From positions 160,001-224,000 of the IMG/VR virus record IMGVR_UViG_3300011559_000001: a stretch of DNA of 64,000 nucleotides, one strand, 5' to 3'. Below are positions 10,622-21,514 of this stretch, one piece after another. Positions within the stretch are counted from its first letter, which is position 1; the number at the start of each line of letters is the position of its first letter. The notes under the pieces are model-generated. The model did no database searches and was not told where the DNA came from. It saw nothing but the letters and a program-made list of their open reading frames with translations. Source of the stretch: a virus (taxonomy: Duplodnaviria; Caudoviricetes). Both the position numbers and the translations under genes were made by a program.

Positions 10622-13600
10622 TCAACCGCCTTGGTTGAAGCGCATGCTTACCGGCAGCGGCTTGCGTTGATTCTCCACCGGGCGATCCCGACGCGGAGTC
10701 ACCGCCTTGGCCGGTTCGGCCGCCGGCGCTACCTGCTCTTCAGCCTTACCGGTGGTTCCGCCGCGCTGAAGGATCTGGCGCAGCATCGACACGGTGTCAG
10801 CGGTGTTTTGCTGGATGCCCTGTTGGACTTCCAGCGACTTCTGGAGGATCTGACCCACTGCGTTCATCTGGGCCTGGTCGGTAGCAGCCAGTCGCTGGGA
10901 CTGGGCTTCGGCCTGACGCTGCTGCTGAGCCAATGCCTGACGCTGCTTCTCAGCAGCGGCCTGACGACTGGCCTCATCACGTGCAGCTGCCGCGGCAGCG
11001 GCATCCAGAGTGGAGGTCGTGTTGATGTCCGGTGTCGCCGCAGCCGTAGTCGGTGCAGCAGCCACAGCCGAAGCACCGCCAGCTGCCGCGGCAGCGTAAC
11101 CGCCACCGGAGGACAACGAGTTGGTACCGGTGCTTCCCGCAGACACTGCCGGCGCGCTGCCCACGGCGGGCATCTTACCAGCCGCATCCGCACCACCCAC
11201 ACCACCGGTAGGACCGCTGGCCGTGGTGGTCGTGTTGACCGGCTTGTTGGCCGTACTGTCAACACTGGAGGTCACACCTGCAAACGCGTTGGTCGCAGTA
11301 GCAGCCGGCGCAGTGGGAGTACCACCTTGCTGACGACCACCGTACACAGCCTGGGCCTTGTTGACCTTCTGCTGCATCAACTGATAGACACCACCGACGG
11401 TCTTGGGGCTGGACAAGTTCGGAACGTTCTTGTTGCCCTGCTTCATCATGTCGTAGAAGATCCACTTGTTGGCCGCAGCTTCCTTGGGGAAGGTTGCCGG
11501 GGCATTCAAGTTGGGATCCTTAGACAGGAAGTTAGCTGCACCGCCTGCGCCCATGAAGTGGGCCATGTACATGTCCGTCTCATTGACGCCACGACCGATG
11601 CGACCCTTCAGGATATTGAAGTTGTCCTTCAGGAACATCGCACCCATCAACGCATTGGCCTTCGGATCAAACGGGCTAGCCGTCGGATTGATGCCGTAGG
11701 TCGAGCCGTACTTCTTCAGCATGCCATTCCAGGTACCGCGAATGAACTGGAACAGACCCGAGGCCGAAGAGGTCGGAGCTTTCGCACCGGGGTTGAACGT
11801 GGACTCGATCGAGCAGATGGCGTAGAGCATGTTCGGATCCACACCAGTCATCTTGGCCACAGCGTCGAACAGCGGCTTCAGTACTGCAAAGCGCTGGCCG
11901 GGCTTCATGGCCGCAATTTCTTCGTTGGACGGAACATTGGGCAAGGAGTTGATGTCACCACCGGTACCCTTACCCGGATGGGACAGTCCCGGACCAAAGC
12001 CCAGTGCGCCCATCGCTGCTTGTCCAGGCAGCATCGCTGCCCGACCCACCGTACTCAATGCGCCACTGACGTCACCGTTGGTGGCCTGGCCCCACGCGTC
12101 CTTGGCCATGTTCAGGCCACGAGTTGCGGTGTCATTGATCGTGTCAACCGTGCGACCCAACCAGTTACGATCATTCTTCGATCCCAGCATCCAATCAGAG
12201 GCTGCCGAGAAGTTGCTCTTCATGGTGTCCATCATGGCACCGAGCATACCGCGGTTTTCCTTGACCGCCGAATCCTGACCGGGCAGCTTCTCTTCTGCCA
12301 TGGCCTTTCCTTCTGCCTGCTTACGCAGGACCAGCATCGATCCGGAGATCGCATTGGAATCGCTGGTGAGCTTTTCGTTGTCGCTCCACGGGGAGAAGGT
12401 CCACGACCAGATCGAACGTTCATCCGGACCCTTGGCGTTGAGCATCTTCTGCGCAACGGTCAACATCTGATCCGGCTTGAGCAGCTTCTCCGGCGCTTCC
12501 GGATCGGCGTTAGGCGACTGATCCTTGACGGCTTGCATGTAGGCCAACGCGACCGGCTTGAAGCGGTTGCCAAACCAGCCACACCAGCGAATGCGATCCT
12601 TCGGACTGTTGGGCGTCAACCCGAACAGACCGGCCGCGGCCATGTACACCTGTTCGGCATCCATGGGGAAATGCGCACGACCGCTACTGGACATCGACAC
12701 CTTACGGAAGATGAGGTTTTCCAGTGCTTGCATCGCACGCACCCGATCGGTGTCCAGATTGGTCAGACCGTAGGCGCGGTAACGCATGGCTTGCAGAGCC
12801 GAGATCTTACCTAGGCGAGCCGTGGGCGTACTCAGGAAGTGATCGATACCTTCGGTGTTCTTGATCGAACCCTTGGTCTCCAGCATGTTCATGCCCGAGC
12901 TGGCCTCAGTGGTGGCGGCCGTCAACTTGGCCCCTTCCTTCTTGGCTTCGCTCTCATCCATCTTGTTCTGCACGTAGTTCATCAGCAATCCACCGCCGGG
13001 AACCAGCACAGCACTCAGACCCATGGCACGCTTCTTCCACTTATCAAGCGACTTCTGACCTTCCGACTTCCCAGCTTCCTTCATGGCCAGGTTATAGGCG
13101 TCTTCGATGTCGCCGACGTTGGTGACCGCAGGCTTACCGTCAAACGGACCCGCAGTGATTGCGTACAGGTTACGGGAGATGGTCCACGCCTTGTTGAGCA
13201 GCTTGGTCAGCGGCTCACCGCTGAGCTTCTCATCGGCATCGAGCAGGGCCATCTTCGGATCGATCTCACGCAGGGACTTGACCCACATCAGGAAGATCGG
13301 CTTGAAGCGCTGGTTGTACCAGATGTTGAACGCGGCACGTTCTTGGTTCTTGTTGCTGAACCAACCGTCCTCCATGTCCATCACCTTGTACACGTCTTCC
13401 ATCGCAATGTCCTTGCCGCCCGAGCTGGACTTGGAGACAATCTCCAAACCACCGCCGCGCTCACCGATGTGATCGAGCAGCAACTCTTCGAGCTTGAAGA
13501 CCATCTTGTTGTTACCTGCATCGCCCGGCTCAACACCGTACTGCAGATAACGGAAGCGACGCACCGGAGTGAGCGAACCGTACTTGAACTGCTTGTAGCC

Positions 13601-16600
13601 GTAGTAGATTGCCACACCAGCCGCGGCCACAGCCGCCGCACCGATGGCAATGGGGATCCAGATCGGAGCACCTACCACGGCAGCAGCCGTACCGGCCGTA
13701 CCGGCAGCGACAGTACCCGCCGTAGCAGCAGCACCTGCGCCAGCGGCCGCCGTACCGGCAGCCGCAGCGGTGCCCGCTGCGGCAGTGCCCGCGGCTGCCG
13801 CGGTGCCTGCGGCCGCCGTACCTGCGGCTGCGGTGCCGGCCGCGGCAGTACCCGCCGCTGCAGTGCCTGCGCCGGCCGCGGTTGCACCACCACTGAACAG
13901 ACTACCCAGCCACGGCAAGCCTCGGGCCAGCTGTGCGTACATAGCCACATCCGATGCGGTGTTGGCCACATCACCCACACCACCAATGACCTTACCGGTG
14001 GTGCTGTCTTCGTCTACACCCATGGCATCGGTTGCAGCACTCACACCGCCAGAGATCAGCATGCTGGCCAGCAGGGCCTTGGGATTCATCAACCCCTTGG
14101 CGCCACGCTTGAGCATACCCGGCTTCTTACCACGGGCAGCGCGTTGACGACGCAGCTTAGCAGCTTGGCGATTACGGGCGCGACCGCCCTTGGTCCCCTT
14201 ACCGCGCTTGGCCTTTTCAGCAGCCTTCTTTTTCTTGGCTGCTTCATCGTCCTTACCGCCATCACCACCAGCGATGATCGTGGTGTCACCACCACCGCCG
14301 TCATCATCGTCATCGTCGTCCTCTTCGGAGTCGCCCCCGCCGAACAGACCCTTGGCCTTGTTCTTGAAGAACGACAGTAGGCCGCCGACGCCCCACTTCT
14401 TGTCCTTCTCGTCCTTTTCCTTCTCAGCCTTTTCGGCCTTAGCCTCTTCGGCATTGATTTCGTTCTGCTCCTGCCAGGAACCCTTACGGGCCTTCTTGCC
14501 GGGCAGACGCTCATCGAGCACCGAGAAGATCTTGGACAGCCATTCGACTTGCTTGGCCCCTTGCTTTTCAAAGGGGTTGAGCAATGCACCGAGGAACTTG
14601 AACGGAGCGCCGAGGACGCCACCACCAAAGCCCATCAGTCCACCGAACAGCTTCCCGTAGCCCTTCATAGCGCCGCCGAACAAAGCACCGGCACCCTTGA
14701 CCATCGAGATCGCCGCACCGCCCAGAGCGCCAATGGCGCGCATCAGCGGGGTCTTCAGGGCCATGCCCCAACGACCAACGATACCCGGTTCATGGATTTC
14801 GGTTTCGTACAGAACGGTCTTGTCGTCCTTGGACGCCTTGTCTTGTCCAGGCAACAGCTCCTTGATGTCACCGTAGATGTCTTCGTAGGTGGTGACCACC
14901 TTACCCGTCTTCTTGGCACCGGCATTGTAGTACCGGCCGGTCTTCATCTTGGAGGCCATCAGACGCGGGGAGGACTCGCCCTTGACGTAGACGTCCACTT
15001 GCTTGTTGGTGGCCCACTTGAACGTGGCACCGATGGCCTTGACGCCCAACGCAGCAGCCTTGAACGGCAGGGCCGCCAGATTACCATAGAAGCTCACCGT
15101 GGCGCCGGCCAACGTCTTGATCGACTTGGTGGCCAGACGCACCATCCCTGCCGGACCCTTGACGAAGATACCCTTGTCAAAGCCTTCCTGATCCAGAATG
15201 GTTTCACCGTTGGTGACATCCATCACCGGACCGGTGACATCACGCCAACGGGTGATCTTGCGCTTGGTGTTCAGGTCAACGAAGTGACCCATCTTGATGC
15301 GCTCGGCCGTCATGATCGGCTTGCGTTCGCCTTGGACGTAGATGTCCTTGATCTGGCGCACGGCATTACCCAGTCGGGACGTTACACCGCCTGCCACAGC
15401 ACCGGCGCCCTTGAAGACACCGCCCACTGCGCCAGCAGCGCCCTTGCCGACCATCTTGGTCCACCACATCGTGCCCTTACCGGCCAACTTTGCAGCGCCC
15501 CATGCACCCTTGATGCTACCCAGGGCAATGGAGTCCAAGAAGCCACGACGGAACCCACCGCCACCACCGCCGTCACCACCACCGCTGCCTTGGGCAGCGA
15601 TCAGCTCAGCGATGATCTTCAGCAGGTCCACCTGTTCACTGTTCAGGCGCACCAGTTCCGGGTTGTCACCCAGAGACCCTGCTTCACGCGGAGTGAAGGG
15701 GTTGTTGGCCGCTTGTTGGTTGGCCGTGGTCTTGGTGGTGTTCATCGCCGCAGCGGCCTGTTCGACCTGCGCCTCAGCGCGAGCCTTCAGTTCTTCAGCG
15801 TTGGTCTGCTGTTCCACCGTACGACCATTGACACGACCACCGGCAGTGTTGACGGCATTGGACACCCAGTCCTGAGCCCCTTGCACATGCGCACGCAGGT
15901 TGAAGGTGACCTTCTCGCCTTTGTTGTTGCGCAGGCCCTTGGCCAGCTTCTCAATACCGATGATGGCATTGGAGGCCATGTCACGGACCGGACCCTTGAT
16001 GTCTTCCCACTTACGGATGGGCAGACCGGAGACGGCGTCGCGATACGAACCGGCCAACAACTTGGCTTCGGTCAGCAGCGCTTCTTTACCACCTTCCTCA
16101 AACAGGTCCTTGGCCTTACCAAAGCGTCCCTTGACCTCACCTACGAACGCATTGCGCAGGCGCTCTTCCGGAGACATCTTCTTGGAACGGATGTCGTTGT
16201 AGTCAGCCTGTTCCACCATATCCAGAACCGCGCCCACATTCAGACGATCGTTACCGTCCTTATCACGGGTGAGCAAGTTCTGATCCATCAGCGCTTCACG
16301 TTGACCGATGGAACGGTAGACGCTGGAGGCGGTCACCGGTGCCTTAGCACCGAAGTTGATCTCGTGGTATTCTTTACTGCGATCACGCATCCACTCATTG
16401 CGACCAACCTTACCGTTACCCTTGCTGGTCTCCGACAGGATGGCCTGCAATTCCAGCTTGGCCTTGGCCGACAGTTCCGGTGTATCGCTGGCCGGAGAAG
16501 TTAGACGTTCCAAGTCAAACGGTTCGAGGTTCATCGAATCCAACAACACCTGACGGAACAGACCCTTGCGAGTCTCAGCACTGATGGGCCGATCGCCAAT

Positions 16601-18085
16601 CAGTTCGTCGATGAAGTTGTTGACGTTGCGCTTGTCATTGGCGCGATCGTTGGGCGTGTAGATCTTCTTGGCTGCGTCACGACCCACAGCACCGACGGAG
16701 GTAAACTCACGACGGTCGTGGTTGTACATCTGAAGCTTGGCTTTGGGATCATGCAGACGAGCAATGCCGTGGTCGATGCGTGCGAGCAGACCCGGGATGA
16801 CCTCCACCAACGTACGCTGGGAGAGCTTGTTCCACGAGGCCGGCTTGTCCAGACCACCCACCCCGTCGCGACCGACAGTGGTGTCAAAACGTTCCTTGCC
16901 CAGGATCGACTTGATGATGTCAATGCCTGCGCCCTTCATGCCCGTTTGCTTAGTCGAACTACGGGCCCAGCGGTTGGCTTCAAAGGGCAGGTTCTGAACC
17001 AGCGACTCCAAGTCGAAGCCGCTGTTCTCCACACCGGGGATGCGCTTGAGCAAGTGCTTGAGCGCAAAGCCCATGCCGTGCTTCATCGCACCGCCACCAG
17101 CCATCGCCGCCAGCATCTCCAGCAACGGAGGACCGTCACCGTCAGTGTCGAAATTACTCAGCGCCATATCGGCGCCGCCCAACACACCCTTCAGGGAGGA
17201 CTTGGCACGGTCACCCATCTTGCGCAGGTAATTGGATGCGAACTTCGTTGCCGAGTTCTGCATGCCACCGAGCATCTTGGTGCGGAAGGTTTGCTTGGCG
17301 GTGTGTGCCAGATCTTGTTTGGCAATGTCGGGCATCGCCGAGTTCTTCTGGATCGCTTCCAGCAGCGCCGTATGGCGACGGGTGGTTTCCACCTGCAGAC
17401 GCAAACTGTCACGGGCCACGAAGTACTGGCGCGTTTGCAGTTCCAGCGTCTTGCGCTGCCAACGGTTGGTGATCTGGTCTTGGTAGTCCACCAGTCGCAT
17501 CATGCCCTGCTGCATGATGTTCAACGCATGCGACTGATCGCGCGTGCTCTTCATCAGCTGGGCGTGCTGGACCGAACGTTCCATGCGCTCTTCGGCCGAG
17601 CGACGTGCATCGCCCTCGGCCACCACTCCAAAGACCTCGCCGAAAATACGCTGCTGCTCGGCGGCCTGCAGTTCTGCCGGGGTGGCATTACGCGGCGGCG
17701 GCTTAGAGAAATCCTCCAGCTTGGCGTAGGTCTCCTTGTCCAATCGCGTCTTGAGCTTGGGCAGGTGACGGGCGGTAATACGACGCATGGCCGGCAATGA
17801 AGGTTCCAGCTCCTTCATAGCGACATTATGTAGCTCTTCTCCTTGTCGGACGACGTCGGAGGCAAGAGAGAAGACGTCACCATATCCCTTCGGGAGCGCT
17901 TTCTTCATCGCGTCCTGGAAGGTGGCAGGCGTCTTCAGGGCATCTTTTGCCCCTTGCTTGAAACTGGTGGCTACCCGCGTGATGACGCCACGCTTCGTTT
18001 GATTCGAAGCGGGCTTAAACGGGTCCTCGAACTCATAGTCGAGTGAGCGATCCCAATCGAGATCGCCCAGTTTTTGCTTCGTCAT
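10622..18085 (-). CDS. tape-measure-like tail protein with C-terminal lytic transglycosylase (phiKZ gp181-like)
   Basis: ~2490 aa; SLT motifs AICSIESTFNPGA, SASGLFQF, YMAHFMG; hydrophobic segments; GGAG RBS before ATG 18085. Confidence 0.9.
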   Translation of the reverse strand: MTKQKLGDLDWDRSLDYEFEDPFKPASNQTKRGVITRVATSFKQGAKDALKTPATFQDAMKKALPKGYGDVFSLASDVVRQGEELHNVAMKELEPSLPAMRRITARHLPKLKTRLDKETYAKLEDFSKPPPRNATPAELQAAEQQRIFGEVFGVVAEGDARRSAEERMERSVQHAQLMKSTRDQSHALNIMQQGMMRLVDYQDQITNRWQRKTLELQTRQYFVARDSLRLQVETTRRHTALLEAIQKNSAMPDIAKQDLAHTAKQTFRTKMLGGMQNSATKFASNYLRKMGDRAKSSLKGVLGGADMALSNFDTDGDGPPLLEMLAAMAGGGAMKHGMGFALKHLLKRIPGVENSGFDLESLVQNLPFEANRWARSSTKQTGMKGAGIDIIKSILGKERFDTTVGRDGVGGLDKPASWNKLSQRTLVEVIPGLLARIDHGIARLHDPKAKLQMYNHDRREFTSVGAVGRDAAKKIYTPNDRANDKRNVNNFIDELIGDRPISAETRKGLFRQVLLDSMNLEPFDLERLTSPASDTPELSAKAKLELQAILSETSKGNGKVGRNEWMRDRSKEYHEINFGAKAPVTASSVYRSIGQREALMDQNLLTRDKDGNDRLNVGAVLDMVEQADYNDIRSKKMSPEERLRNAFVGEVKGRFGKAKDLFEEGGKEALLTEAKLLAGSYRDAVSGLPIRKWEDIKGPVRDMASNAIIGIEKLAKGLRNNKGEKVTFNLRAHVQGAQDWVSNAVNTAGGRVNGRTVEQQTNAEELKARAEAQVEQAAAAMNTTKTTANQQAANNPFTPREAGSLGDNPELVRLNSEQVDLLKIIAELIAAQGSGGGDGGGGGGFRRGFLDSIALGSIKGAWGAAKLAGKGTMWWTKMVGKGAAGAVGGVFKGAGAVAGGVTSRLGNAVRQIKDIYVQGERKPIMTAERIKMGHFVDLNTKRKITRWRDVTGPVMDVTNGETILDQEGFDKGIFVKGPAGMVRLATKSIKTLAGATVSFYGNLAALPFKAAALGVKAIGATFKWATNKQVDVYVKGESSPRLMASKMKTGRYYNAGAKKTGKVVTTYEDIYGDIKELLPGQDKASKDDKTVLYETEIHEPGIVGRWGMALKTPLMRAIGALGGAAISMVKGAGALFGGAMKGYGKLFGGLMGFGGGVLGAPFKFLGALLNPFEKQGAKQVEWLSKIFSVLDERLPGKKARKGSWQEQNEINAEEAKAEKAEKEKDEKDKKWGVGGLLSFFKNKAKGLFGGGDSEEDDDDDDDGGGGDTTIIAGGDGGKDDEAAKKKKAAEKAKRGKGTKGGRARNRQAAKLRRQRAARGKKPGMLKRGAKGLMNPKALLASMLISGGVSAATDAMGVDEDSTTGKVIGGVGDVANTASDVAMYAQLARGLPWLGSLFSGGATAAGAGTAAAGTAAAGTAAAGTAAAGTAAAAGTAAAGTAAAAGTAAAGAGAAATAGTVAAGTAGTAAAVVGAPIWIPIAIGAAAVAAAGVAIYYGYKQFKYGSLTPVRRFRYLQYGVEPGDAGNNKMVFKLEELLLDHIGERGGGLEIVSKSSSGGKDIAMEDVYKVMDMEDGWFSNKNQERAAFNIWYNQRFKPIFLMWVKSLREIDPKMALLDADEKLSGEPLTKLLNKAWTISRNLYAITAGPFDGKPAVTNVGDIEDAYNLAMKEAGKSEGQKSLDKWKKRAMGLSAVLVPGGGLLMNYVQNKMDESEAKKEGAKLTAATTEASSGMNMLETKGSIKNTEGIDHFLSTPTARLGKISALQAMRYRAYGLTNLDTDRVRAMQALENLIFRKVSMSSSGRAHFPMDAEQVYMAAAGLFGLTPNSPKDRIRWCGWFGNRFKPVALAYMQAVKDQSPNADPEAPEKLLKPDQMLTVAQKMLNAKGPDERSIWSWTFSPWSDNEKLTSDSNAISGSMLVLRKQAEGKAMAEEKLPGQDSAVKENRGMLGAMMDTMKSNFSAASDWMLGSKNDRNWLGRTVDTINDTATRGLNMAKDAWGQATNGDVSGALSTVGRAAMLPGQAAMGALGFGPGLSHPGKGTGGDINSLPNVPSNEEIAAMKPGQRFAVLKPLFDAVAKMTGVDPNMLYAICSIESTFNPGAKAPTSSASGLFQFIRGTWNGMLKKYGSTYGINPTASPFDPKANALMGAMFLKDNFNILKGRIGRGVNETDMYMAHFMGAGGAANFLSKDPNLNAPATFPKEAAANKWIFYDMMKQGNKNVPNLSSPKTVGGVYQLMQQKVNKAQAVYGGRQQGGTPTAPAATATNAFAGVTSSVDSTANKPVNTTTTASGPTGGVGGADAAGKMPAVGSAPAVSAGSTGTNSLSSGGGYAAAAAGGASAVAAAPTTAAATPDINTTSTLDAAAAAAARDEASRQAAAEKQRQALAQQQRQAEAQSQRLAATDQAQMNAVGQILQKSLEVQQGIQQNTADTVSMLRQILQRGGTTGKAEEQVAPAAEPAKAVTPRRDRPVENQRKPLPVSMRFNQGG
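13680..13885 (-). repeat. intragenic (AAAGT)n peptide repeat, degenerate 15-18-bp units
   Basis: GTAAAGTAAAGTAAAGTAAAGTAAAAGT... immediately before a TM-like segment. Confidence 0.85.
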
Positions 18086-18155
18086 TGTTTTCTCCAGGCC
18101 TGATCTTATTAAGGCAGGCCGTAGGCCCTCATTCATAGTTTAAGGAACCTTTCCG

Positions 18156-19622
18156 ATGTCTCCTTTGGAACTACCGTTCAATGTGGAGATCTTCCAGCCC
18201 ACGGATGAACGGCTGCGACTCCTCAAGCCGGTCACCAGTACCGACTACCACGAGAACACCAAGGGCGACCTCCACGAGGACGGCCTGTTCTCGATCAGTA
18301 TCTTCGGGCGCATCGGTGATGAAGCCCGCGATCGTCGGTTCTCGTTTATCGACATCAAAACTGAAATCTTCCACCCGATCATCTACAACCGTCTGATCCG
18401 ACTGAAGAAGCTGTATGGGGCGATCCTCAACAGCGAGCAGTATGCCGTCTGGAACGAAGAAGCTCACGACTTCATGCCGTCCAATGAAATGGATGGTCGT
18501 ACCGGTTATGCCTTCTTCTGCGAGCACTGGAAGAAGCTGGTGTTCAACCGCAACAAGTCCGACGTACGTGACTTGCGTGCCAAGCTGGTGGAGAAGTATC
18601 GTGGCGAAGCCATGACCTCCAAGATCTTGGTGTTGCCTGCGGGTCTGCGCGACATCGAGGTGGATGAAAACGGTCGCACCAACGTGCACGAGATCAACCC
18701 GCTGTACCTGAAGCTGTTGATCGCCTCGTCCACCTTGCCGGCCAGCGAATCGGTGCGAACCGATCCGACCTATGACCGAGCCCGTGTGCTGTTGCAGCGC
18801 GCCTTCAACGACATCTACGATCTGATTGAAACCATGCTCTCGGGCAAGAAGGGTTTCTTCCAGGACAAGTGGGCGGCCCGTAACGTGGCCAACTCCACCC
18901 GTAACGTGATCACCGCCATGGACACCTCCGTGGCTGAACTGGGTGCTGTCAATGCACCACGCTTCACCGACACGATCGTGGGCCTGTGGCAGTTGTCCAA
19001 GGCCGTACTGCCACTGACCATCCACCAACTGATGAAGGGTTACCTGAGTCAGGTCTTTGCATATGGCAATCGCCAAGCGCGTCTGGTCAACCCGGACACG
19101 CTGGAGGCAGAGATCGTGGAAGTGTCAGCTGACTACTACGACAAGTGGAACACCGTCGAAGGGTTGGAGAAGATCGTCACCAGCTACAAGGAACTGTCCT
19201 TGCGCAACAAGCCGGTCAAGATCGATGACTACTACTACATGGCCCTGCTGTACGCCCCGGCCAACCGTACGGTCTTCAAGATCTTCTCCGACATCAACGA
19301 GCTGCCCGAAGGGTTTGATCGCAAGGACGTGCGGCCGATCAACCTGATGGAACTGCTGTATTTGTCCGGGTACAAGATCTGGAACGACCAGGTCGGCACC
19401 GTGACCCGTTACCCGATCACCGGGTTGGGTAGCTGCTATCCCACTACGGTCTACGTCAAGACCACGGTGGTGGGTGAAGTGCGCGGTGAGCTCGATGACA
19501 ACTGGGAACTGCCTGACTCAGGCACCGAGCATATCGCTCCGGAGTTCCCCACCTACGATCCGCTGGCCTACCAGGACAGCCTCGTAATCCCCAGTACCCG
19601 CCTTGCGGGTCTGAGTGCCGAT
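18156..19622 (+). CDS. virion RNA polymerase beta' catalytic subunit (phiKZ gp180-like), exon 1
   Basis: DGLFSISIFG, VLPAGLRD, GKKGFFQ, VTRYPITG; ends LAGLSAD at the intron. Confidence 0.9.
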
Positions 19623-20023
19623 AACCCGTAGCACAACTACGGGTAAGTCCCGTACAGATGTGAATCTGTGCGAGCATTCCCTTAATTGCTGGAAACTCCT
19701 GTTAGACTCAATGGCTACAACGTGGGACGAAAGTCCGAGCGTGAATGCTTGAAAACATTGAGGTAGGGACAATCAGCAGCTGATCCCCTTCGTGTACCTG
19801 CTTTTTAGCGTGGAGCATGGGGAGAGTTCAACGACTATCCGGTGGTGCGGAGTACATCGTAATTGGGCGATGGAAATAGGGAACTTCTACGAACCTGCGT
19901 CTGGGCAAAACGCTGCGTAGAAGAAGATATAGTCTGGCCTGCATGGAGACATGCAGCAGTGGATCTGTAGTTGCGGCAGACACCACGCGCTTGAGGGGAA
20001 ACGACCACAAGCGGAACAAAGCG
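19623..20023 (+). mobile_element. group I self-splicing intron (IA2-like), no homing endonuclease ORF
   Basis: 5' exon ends in U, intron ends in G; P AATTGCTGGAAA 19684, Q AATCAGCAGC 19771, R GTTCAACGACTA 19826, S AAGATATAGTCT 19924; P2 with GUGA loop; P9 ctgcatg-gaga-catgcag; removal restores ADFDGDT. Confidence 0.93.
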
Positions 20024-20200
20024 TTCGACGGCGATACCGCCAGCTTCATCGCATATTACACCAGCGCTAAGCAGGAGATCAAAGATTTCCTGAACAGCAA
20101 GCGTGCCTTCGTCAACCCCATTGGTGGTATCCAAACCAGTGCGGCAGTTGATACGGTCGTGCTGTTCATGCGTAGCTTCACTGGCCACCCTGAAGATTAA
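20024..20200 (+). CDS. virion RNAP beta' exon 2 (FDGDTASF...); spliced product 547 aa
   Basis: In frame with exon 1 after splicing; completes the Mg-binding DFDGD motif. Confidence 0.9.
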   Translation, partial: FDGDTASFIAYYTSAKQEIKDFLNSKRAFVNPIGGIQTSAAVDTVVLFMRSFTGHPED

Positions 20201-20215
20201 TCCAAGGACAGTACG

Positions 20216-21514
20216 ATGTTGAACAAAGACGAACAGGCTGTCGAGGAGAGTATCGCCAGCCTTGAGTCGCTGCGGGACTTTGAGGAACAACTGCTCGAAG
20301 GTGCAGTGAGCCTGGAGTCCGGTGGTGCCGAGGTGGATTACCTCAAGATTCGCCAGATGGAGGACTTGGAAGTCTCCGTGGGGATGGAAGCCAACACCAT
20401 GCAGGTCGTGCGGGACGTGTTCTCCTCGATCGGTCGCATGTCGGTGGCCTTGGGCCATGGCTTCATGAAGTTCCTGGACAACATACACCGGGCCATTGAC
20501 ACCACCCATCTGGTGCGTACCCGTCAGACCCGTGAGAAGATCAAGTCCATCCCGGTGTCTGAGCACACTGTGAACAAGGGCCGGATGGAACGGGCCAAGC
20601 TGGCTGCTGGTCTGGCCATCGACGGTGACATCCCGTCCAACTTCCGCTCCTATGCTGATGGCATGGTCGACTTCTCCCGTCGCACCACCAACAATGTCAT
20701 GAGTGATCTGGCTTCGCTGAGCCGTCAGATCGGCGCACGTCTGGAAGCCAAGCGTTGGATGGGCAACAATGCCTTCAACGCTGAAGTGGTTGAGATCGTG
20801 CGTATCATCGGCGCCTACAAGCTGCCGATGCAGCGTTACCCCGACACCGACTACCGTCGCCTGTTCCCGGGTAACCGTTCGATCTTCTCCAATATCAAGC
20901 CCAAGCGTCCGCGCCGTGAACCGGTGGAACAGACCCAGGCCGCCAAGAAGGTCATTGATGGTGTGTCCAATACGGTCATCGGCATCGCCGCCCGTCCGGA
21001 CTACGTCAAGGGCAAGGCCGACACGATCCTGCCGATCCTCACGGTGGAGCAGCAGTTGGCCATGGTCGATGCAGCTGAGGTCCTGCTCAAGGAAGCTCAG
21101 CGCGTGGCTCAGGTGGCCAAGGCCTACAAGAAGGACAAGGTCCCCTCCACGTTCTCGATGATGATCTCCGGCTTCTTCCATGGCGTCAAGCGCCAGTTTG
21201 ACGATGTCTGGACTGCCCAGGACGATGGCTATGATGTCATCGATACCAGCGGCGGTGTGCAGACCCGTCACAAGCCGGGCACGCGCAATCCCTTGGGTGG
21301 CGCCGCCTCCCGTCTGGCTGGTCAGATGGGTATGGGCATGGAATCGCTCACCGAAGACGAAGCACGGGCTCAGTTGGCCGTGTGGGTCAGTCGTTACCTC
21401 AAGCTGTCGCTGATTGATCATCAGCGTACGGCGCAGTCGTTGATCCTCTTGTTGGTGTCCGTGGCCAAGACGTACTTGGACTACGTCGATGAGAGCCTCG
21501 ACTACTACACCTGA
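20216..21514 (+). CDS. putative internal head protein with protease-processed propeptide
   Basis: Acidic N-terminus with ASLE, VSLE, GME motifs typical of phiKZ-like prohead protease substrates. Confidence 0.7.
   Translation: MLNKDEQAVEESIASLESLRDFEEQLLEGAVSLESGGAEVDYLKIRQMEDLEVSVGMEANTMQVVRDVFSSIGRMSVALGHGFMKFLDNIHRAIDTTHLVRTRQTREKIKSIPVSEHTVNKGRMERAKLAAGLAIDGDIPSNFRSYADGMVDFSRRTTNNVMSDLASLSRQIGARLEAKRWMGNNAFNAEVVEIVRIIGAYKLPMQRYPDTDYRRLFPGNRSIFSNIKPKRPRREPVEQTQAAKKVIDGVSNTVIGIAARPDYVKGKADTILPILTVEQQLAMVDAAEVLLKEAQRVAQVAKAYKKDKVPSTFSMMISGFFHGVKRQFDDVWTAQDDGYDVIDTSGGVQTRHKPGTRNPLGGAASRLAGQMGMGMESLTEDEARAQLAVWVSRYLKLSLIDHQRTAQSLILLLVSVAKTYLDYVDESLDYYT

Follow-up and report, generated by a model that had tools for sequence, protein, structure and literature searches.

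An ORF-less group I intron in the catalytic motif of a jumbo phage virion RNA polymerase beta' gene

We found that a group I intron without a gene of its own interrupts the catalytic motif of the virion RNA polymerase (RNAP) beta' gene in the 64,000-nt stretch of phage DNA analyzed here (the window), which belongs to a virus record of 310,882 bases (a 311-kb genome). Its presence was confirmed at the level of sequence, and the placement that the original prediction had given it, as an ORF-less intron splitting D|FDGD at 19623-20023, proved exact: Rfam RF00028 matched at 63.1 bits, and a single pair of cuts restored the frame. Very probably, the intron is a ribozyme that has lost its homing endonuclease and is maintained at a homing hotspot through vertical descent.

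The interrupted gene and its restored reading frame

The insert is 401 nt long, is preceded by T19622, and has G20023 as its last base. Upstream, the ORF that starts at 18156 closes as ...GLSAD-NP*, with a UAG at 19629-19631, and FDGDT resumes at 20024. We scanned cut pairs over about 17 bases on each side of both boundaries (5', 19605-19639; 3', 20005-20039) and found that only 19622^20024 gave an open frame with DFDGD. All alternative pairs were thus excluded. The product is 547 aa long, as had been predicted for exact excision. The two exons tile the phrog_2986 profile without a gap. The features are as follows.

18156-19622, plus strand: exon 1 of the virion RNAP beta' gene (phiKZ gp180 orthologue); phrog_2986 positions 6-484, E 4.8e-181; its last codon is the first Asp of DFDGD
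19623-20023, plus strand: ORF-less, IA2-like group I intron of 401 nt, identified by RF00028, the unique splice pair, and covariation
19943-20200, plus strand: spurious 85-aa ORF with its ATG inside P9; a gene-caller artefact that is not conserved
20024-20200, plus strand: exon 2, 58 codons, beginning FDGDT; phrog_2986 positions 485-538, continuing from where exon 1 stops

The phrog_2986 match and synteny with phiKZ bear out the earlier assignment of the host gene to virion RNAP beta'. The gene order is that of phiKZ gp181-gp180-gp178, DFDGD lies near the C-terminus, and the exon 1 protein is 41% identical to that of phiKZ gp180. By these similarities, the interrupted gene is orthologous to phiKZ gp180. 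In phiKZ, Gp180 is the DFDGD-bearing subunit of the virion RNAP, a middle gene product that is packaged in the virion (PMC10612078). Sequence searches of the PDB returned only weak matches to AR9 beta' and found no solved gp180 structure. The genome has a single gp180-like gene, the one that the intron splits, and thus no intact back-up copy. Because the unspliced product lacks two of the three catalytic Asp residues, splicing is necessary for an active subunit.

The nearest named relatives are the Xanthomonas phages RTH11 and LucasX, whose exon-1 proteins are 80% and 76% identical to that of the window, respectively. The original prediction held that annotation would report two broken genes. 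This is the case in the GenBank records of RTH11 and LucasX, where the intron is unannotated and two separate CDSs are called. The gene model is therefore corrected: in the window genome, in RTH11, and in LucasX, a single catalytic subunit of ~547 aa takes the place of a truncated protein plus a hypothetical protein.

The window phage is likely nucleus forming. A chimallin homologue (phiKZ gp54, E 5e-28) adjoins a gp55 homologue with an uninterrupted NADFDGD just outside the window (227080-230073 of the virus record). The gp181-like tail protein (2504 aa; 10622-18136, minus strand) has a long Ala/Gly/Thr-rich repeat near 13700-13950 and an apparent lytic transglycosylase domain close to its C-terminus.

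Fold and conservation of the intron RNA

The covariance-model scan that the original prediction had named as a check gave a match above threshold (cut-off 50 bits; E 1.2e-13) to RF00028 at 19620-19956, covering the full model (1-253). The elements of the fold, all on the plus strand, are listed below.

19620-19649, plus strand: P1; exon GAU pairs with GUC at 19647-19649, and U19622·G19647 marks the 5' splice site
19651-19672, plus strand: P2 hairpin, with two-sided change in 6 of 9 pairs
19677-19883, plus strand: core, with P3 (19677-19682/19878-19883), P4 (19687-19692/19773-19778), P5 with a P5a-type extension, and P6/P6a
19826-19872, plus strand: core, continued, with the R element (19826-19837), P7.1 (19838-19851), and P7.2 (19855-19872)
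19884-19934, plus strand: P8 and the S element; P7, the guanosine-binding helix, is 19833-19837/19930-19934
19937-20023, plus strand: P9.0, P9, P9.1, P9.2, and the terminal G20023; P9.0 is GC at 19937-19938 with GC at 20021-20022

The helices, including P3, P8, and P9, were as first described, and we added P7.1, P7.2, and P9.0. The U·G pair of P1 is present in 5 of 5 orthologues. P1 is closed by an 8-bp hairpin (19624-19631/19637-19644) that contains the UAG stop, and four P1 pairs are compensatory; in phiKZ, an HNH gene stands at the place in P1 that this hairpin occupies in the window intron. P3 and P7 make up the pseudoknot, and P7 is both invariant and paired in all five sequences. Across the same five, P3, P4, P6, and P7 are 100% paired, and P8 is 77% paired as aligned. 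P9.0 reads GU/AC in phiKZ and GC/GC in the window intron, a compensatory change.

Aligning the window intron with those of RTH11, LucasX, IMG/VR L005, and metagenome L017, a small set of related sequences with the structure drawn from the window, we found that 94.3% of cells were paired and that 32 of 103 pairs had two-sided change. Slid controls had two-sided change in 3 to 5 pairs, and none of 500 shuffles was as high as the real alignment. This covariation supports the fold, but it is not a probability. The intron is 78 to 93% identical to its orthologues, and four-fold exon sites are 34 to 62% identical. That the intron is better kept than these sites indicates purifying selection on the intron RNA.

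Hairpins P7.1 and P7.2 between P7 and P3 are a criterion of subgroup IA2. Both are 100% paired with compensatory changes in our alignment and sit at the same place in the T4 td and nrdB introns, which upholds the IA2-like resemblance that had been predicted. The T4 introns also share the P/Q/R/S core and a similar P9 domain with the window intron. However, they lie in other host genes, have ORFs in the P6 region, and lack the P5 extension, and their core identity is 49 to 57%. IA2-like anatomy is thus supported by comparison, within a subgroup that is heterogeneous (PMC11878797). A scan for sigma-70 promoters and terminators gave matches at chance level, with a sigma-70 model that does not cover phage RNAP promoters.

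The same site in related phages

The intron site itself is not new, since phiKZ is interrupted at the same base in the literature and Goslar in RefSeq. We found no description in the literature of the intron in the RTH11/LucasX clade and no paper on phage RTH11. A survey of related phages, which had also been put forward as a check on the prediction, found both intron-less alleles (KTN4 and Xoo-sp14) and endonuclease-bearing ones (phiKZ and Vibrio phages). Together, the sequences include all stages at one base: empty, HNH bearing, deleted remnant, and streamlined.

An ORF-less intron is present at the identical base in RTH11, LucasX, L005/L006, and L017, with lengths of 397 to 405 nt in the clade. 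The RTH11 and LucasX introns are orthologous to that of the window; they are 405 nt long, are 93% and 85% identical to it, respectively, and differ only by peripheral, mostly compensatory changes. An intron tree groups all five ORF-less introns in a single clade (100/99) but does not separate the deeper branches, including those to the phiKZ and T4 introns. The empty site is seen in Xoo-sp14 and KTN4, which read GAD-FDGD without a break. Overall, the site was crossed in one piece in 49 of 60 records, an even sample of the 313 records with the gene.

In phiKZ, U1B, and Koomba there is a group I intron of 1443 nt at the identical base. The phiKZ intron (AF399011; RF00028, 92 bits) shares with that of the window the gene, the base (GAT|TTC), the P5 extension, P7.1/P7.2, and the P9.0 logic. 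In contrast to the window intron, it carries a 357-aa HNH gene (PHIKZ179) in the P1 loop, and the cores are ~56% identical. This gene, gp179, follows the 5' splice site and precedes the guide sequence. Introns at phiKZ gp180 and gp55 are treated as established in PMC11512511, a source that credits those at gp180 and gp179 to Ceyssens 2014 and Mesyanzhinov 2002. HNH-bearing introns also lie at the identical base in the Vibrio phages Yong MS31 (1430 nt) and 2 TSL-2019 (1717 nt). In Goslar (NC_048170), RefSeq flags a group I intron (Intron_gpI feature HOV27_gs002) in the same gene at the same base, but it is 2044 nt long and has a 490-aa ORF179-like gene (gp206).

Pseudomonas phage OMKO1 (ON631220) has an unannotated intron at the same base (1632-2112 of the analyzed segment) and, like the window, no intact nuclease; the longest ATG ORF is 33 aa. 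This intron differs from that of the window in being 481 nt long and in retaining both ends of a deleted gp179. Because it is 91% identical to the 3' part of the phiKZ intron, nuclease loss in OMKO1 was a separate event. Read as a deletion remnant, the OMKO1 intron shows directly that a nuclease was lost at the D|FDGD site. In 12 records, a phiKZ-type intron 3' part is joined to exon 2, and other phages of the genus match exon 2 only.

The phiKZ non-virion beta' gene has a further intron, at N|ADFDGD. The catalytic loop is thus a recurrent intron target. In Vibrio phage VP4B, the gp180-type gene is interrupted 12 bases downstream of the D|FDGD site, after DYDGD, by a group I intron that is apparently ORF-less (from 3938 of the analyzed segment). 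The non-virion beta' gene of Churi (segment ~340-2130) has two tandem group I introns: the first is HNH bearing and is followed by a short exon, and the second, which ends at N|ADFDGD, is apparently nuclease-less and keeps a tiny remnant of the start of phiKZ gp56.

Loss of the endonuclease and persistence of the intron

The frames of the window intron hold no nuclease-sized ORF, and their longest stop-free stretch is 64 codons. We found no match to HNH_3 (PF13392), GIY-YIG (PF01541), or HNH (PF01844) in the 311-kb genome, a search that a very divergent nuclease could escape, and three same-site nucleases gave no significant match there by tblastn or phmmer. Since no homing endonuclease was found in the genome, loss of the nuclease appears likelier than help in trans. 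The original prediction had left both options open. Loss is favored by the intact HNH gene in phiKZ and the OMKO1 remnant, and homing in trans from the genome itself is not supported, given the lack of a nuclease match. By analogy with phiKZ and OMKO1 rather than by tracing, the intron would descend from a nuclease-bearing intron at this site, with an HNH gene in the P1 loop of its ancestor.

The two-step splicing reaction is established group I chemistry. The pre-mRNA would fold, and free guanosine bound in P7 would attack the phosphate after U19622, the base that the U·G pair of P1 holds in place. In the second step, exon 1 would attack after G20023, positioned by P7 and P9.0, so that GAU would be joined to UUC and DFDGD restored. 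We infer that splicing takes place in vivo. Against this, long-read sequencing of phiKZ gave no spliced reads at gp179 under the conditions of one study (PMC10914365). Persistence would follow from the position of the intron: imprecise deletion would destroy the active site, and the ribozyme would stay under purifying selection. In phiKZ, deletion of orf179 is tolerated and transposon insertions there are not (PMC12676376), a pattern that fits a need for an intact intron with a dispensable nuclease.

It is possible, although unlikely, that a benefit adds to this persistence, in that an empty intron is kept as a shield because the split D|FDGD target cannot be cleaved by same-site endonucleases of co-infecting jumbo phages. 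In phiKZ and in two Vibrio phages, HNH nucleases occupy precisely this site, and the ORF-less form has lasted across phages whose exon-1 proteins are only 66 to 80% identical. There is also a precedent in the neighboring gene. Like that of the window, the gp210 intron of PhiPA3, a nucleus-forming phage, is of group I type and adjoins conserved Asp residues encoded by a virion RNAP gene (Birkholz 2024, PMC11620839). It differs in interrupting the beta subunit gene (gp178 orthologue) and in encoding an active HNH nickase, and this intron nuclease harms intron-less phiKZ (PMC11620839). However, we found a nuclease-bearing allele in no phage of the Xanthomonas clade, and precise loss is difficult enough to account for persistence with no benefit at all. 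Somewhat more doubtful again is the specific claim that the nuclease-free intron was kept through the divergence of the Xanthomonas jumbo phages as a shield of the active-site codons against rival homing nucleases.

The original prediction also held that splicing gates the polymerase. This holds only trivially, as for any intron in an essential gene, and a regulated gate that times or limits production of the virion polymerase is improbable. Unspliced RNA would yield no active subunit, and splicing of T4 introns can depend on growth state (Sandegren and Sjoberg 2007, as cited in PMC10914365). However, most relatives are intron-less, and phages of the phiKZ genus vary in carrying the intron. 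The in-frame stop is not conserved in position, falling at intron base 7 in the window and RTH11, 64 in LucasX, 61 in L005, 40 in L017, and 1 in phiKZ. In addition, the Rfam scan gave no sensor-like RNA family beyond RF00028.

Equally improbable is that a free-standing endonuclease acting in trans still keeps the intron mobile. Some phage introns do receive such help, and an orphan gene of 432 aa follows exon 2 in the clade. However, its protein matched no nuclease family, and nothing favored it as a free-standing nuclease. The genome has neither an HNH_3, HNH, or GIY-YIG match nor a significant relative of the three same-site nucleases, and the intron clade looks vertically inherited. The 432-aa gene (20216-21514, plus strand) is between the gp180- and gp178-like genes. 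The only cultured phages with a detectable relative of it are RTH11 and LucasX; Xoo-sp14, KTN4, and phiKZ lack the gene at this place. Several xLE-like motifs lie near the N-terminus of its protein, for which a weak lead points to phiKZ internal head proteins (phiKZ_IP, PF12699 in 12% of one look-alike cluster).

Finally, it is scarcely credible that there is no splicing and that the halves are separate polypeptides, as with other split subunits of these polymerases: the 85-aa ORF from the ATG at 19943 does enter exon 2 in the window and RTH11, but in LucasX, L005, phiKZ, and the Vibrio phages the open stretch that leads into exon 2 lacks an in-frame ATG, the window ATG is in P9, the magnesium-binding loop would be broken, and the complete ribozyme fold is conserved. 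Exon 2 as a separate ORF was rejected because the ATG is not conserved among relatives.

Taken alone, the conceptual gain is small, because ORF-less group I introns are common in phages and phiKZ has an intron at this very base. In the Bastillevirinae, for example, 32 of 45 introns have a nuclease and 13 of 45 are ORF-less (PMC11878797). The window intron is of modest value in that it stands at the end of a natural series of alleles that share a single site in culturable nucleus-forming phages. With such a series, one could ask why introns are retained when empty and whether splicing occurs inside the phage nucleus, away from ribosomes. A shielding effect, if true, would give an "empty" intron a defensive role.

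A DNA pattern search of IMG/VR with the S/P9 region found five unrelated phage introns (L018-L022), none of them in a gp180-type gene. Several are apparently in major capsid genes, and one (L020) has ORFs inside the intron core. In Vibrio phage ICP1 (segment 1-1800), an HNH gene that lies between ORF81 and ORF79 is surrounded by at least two group I intron cores, in a record that has no intron annotation.
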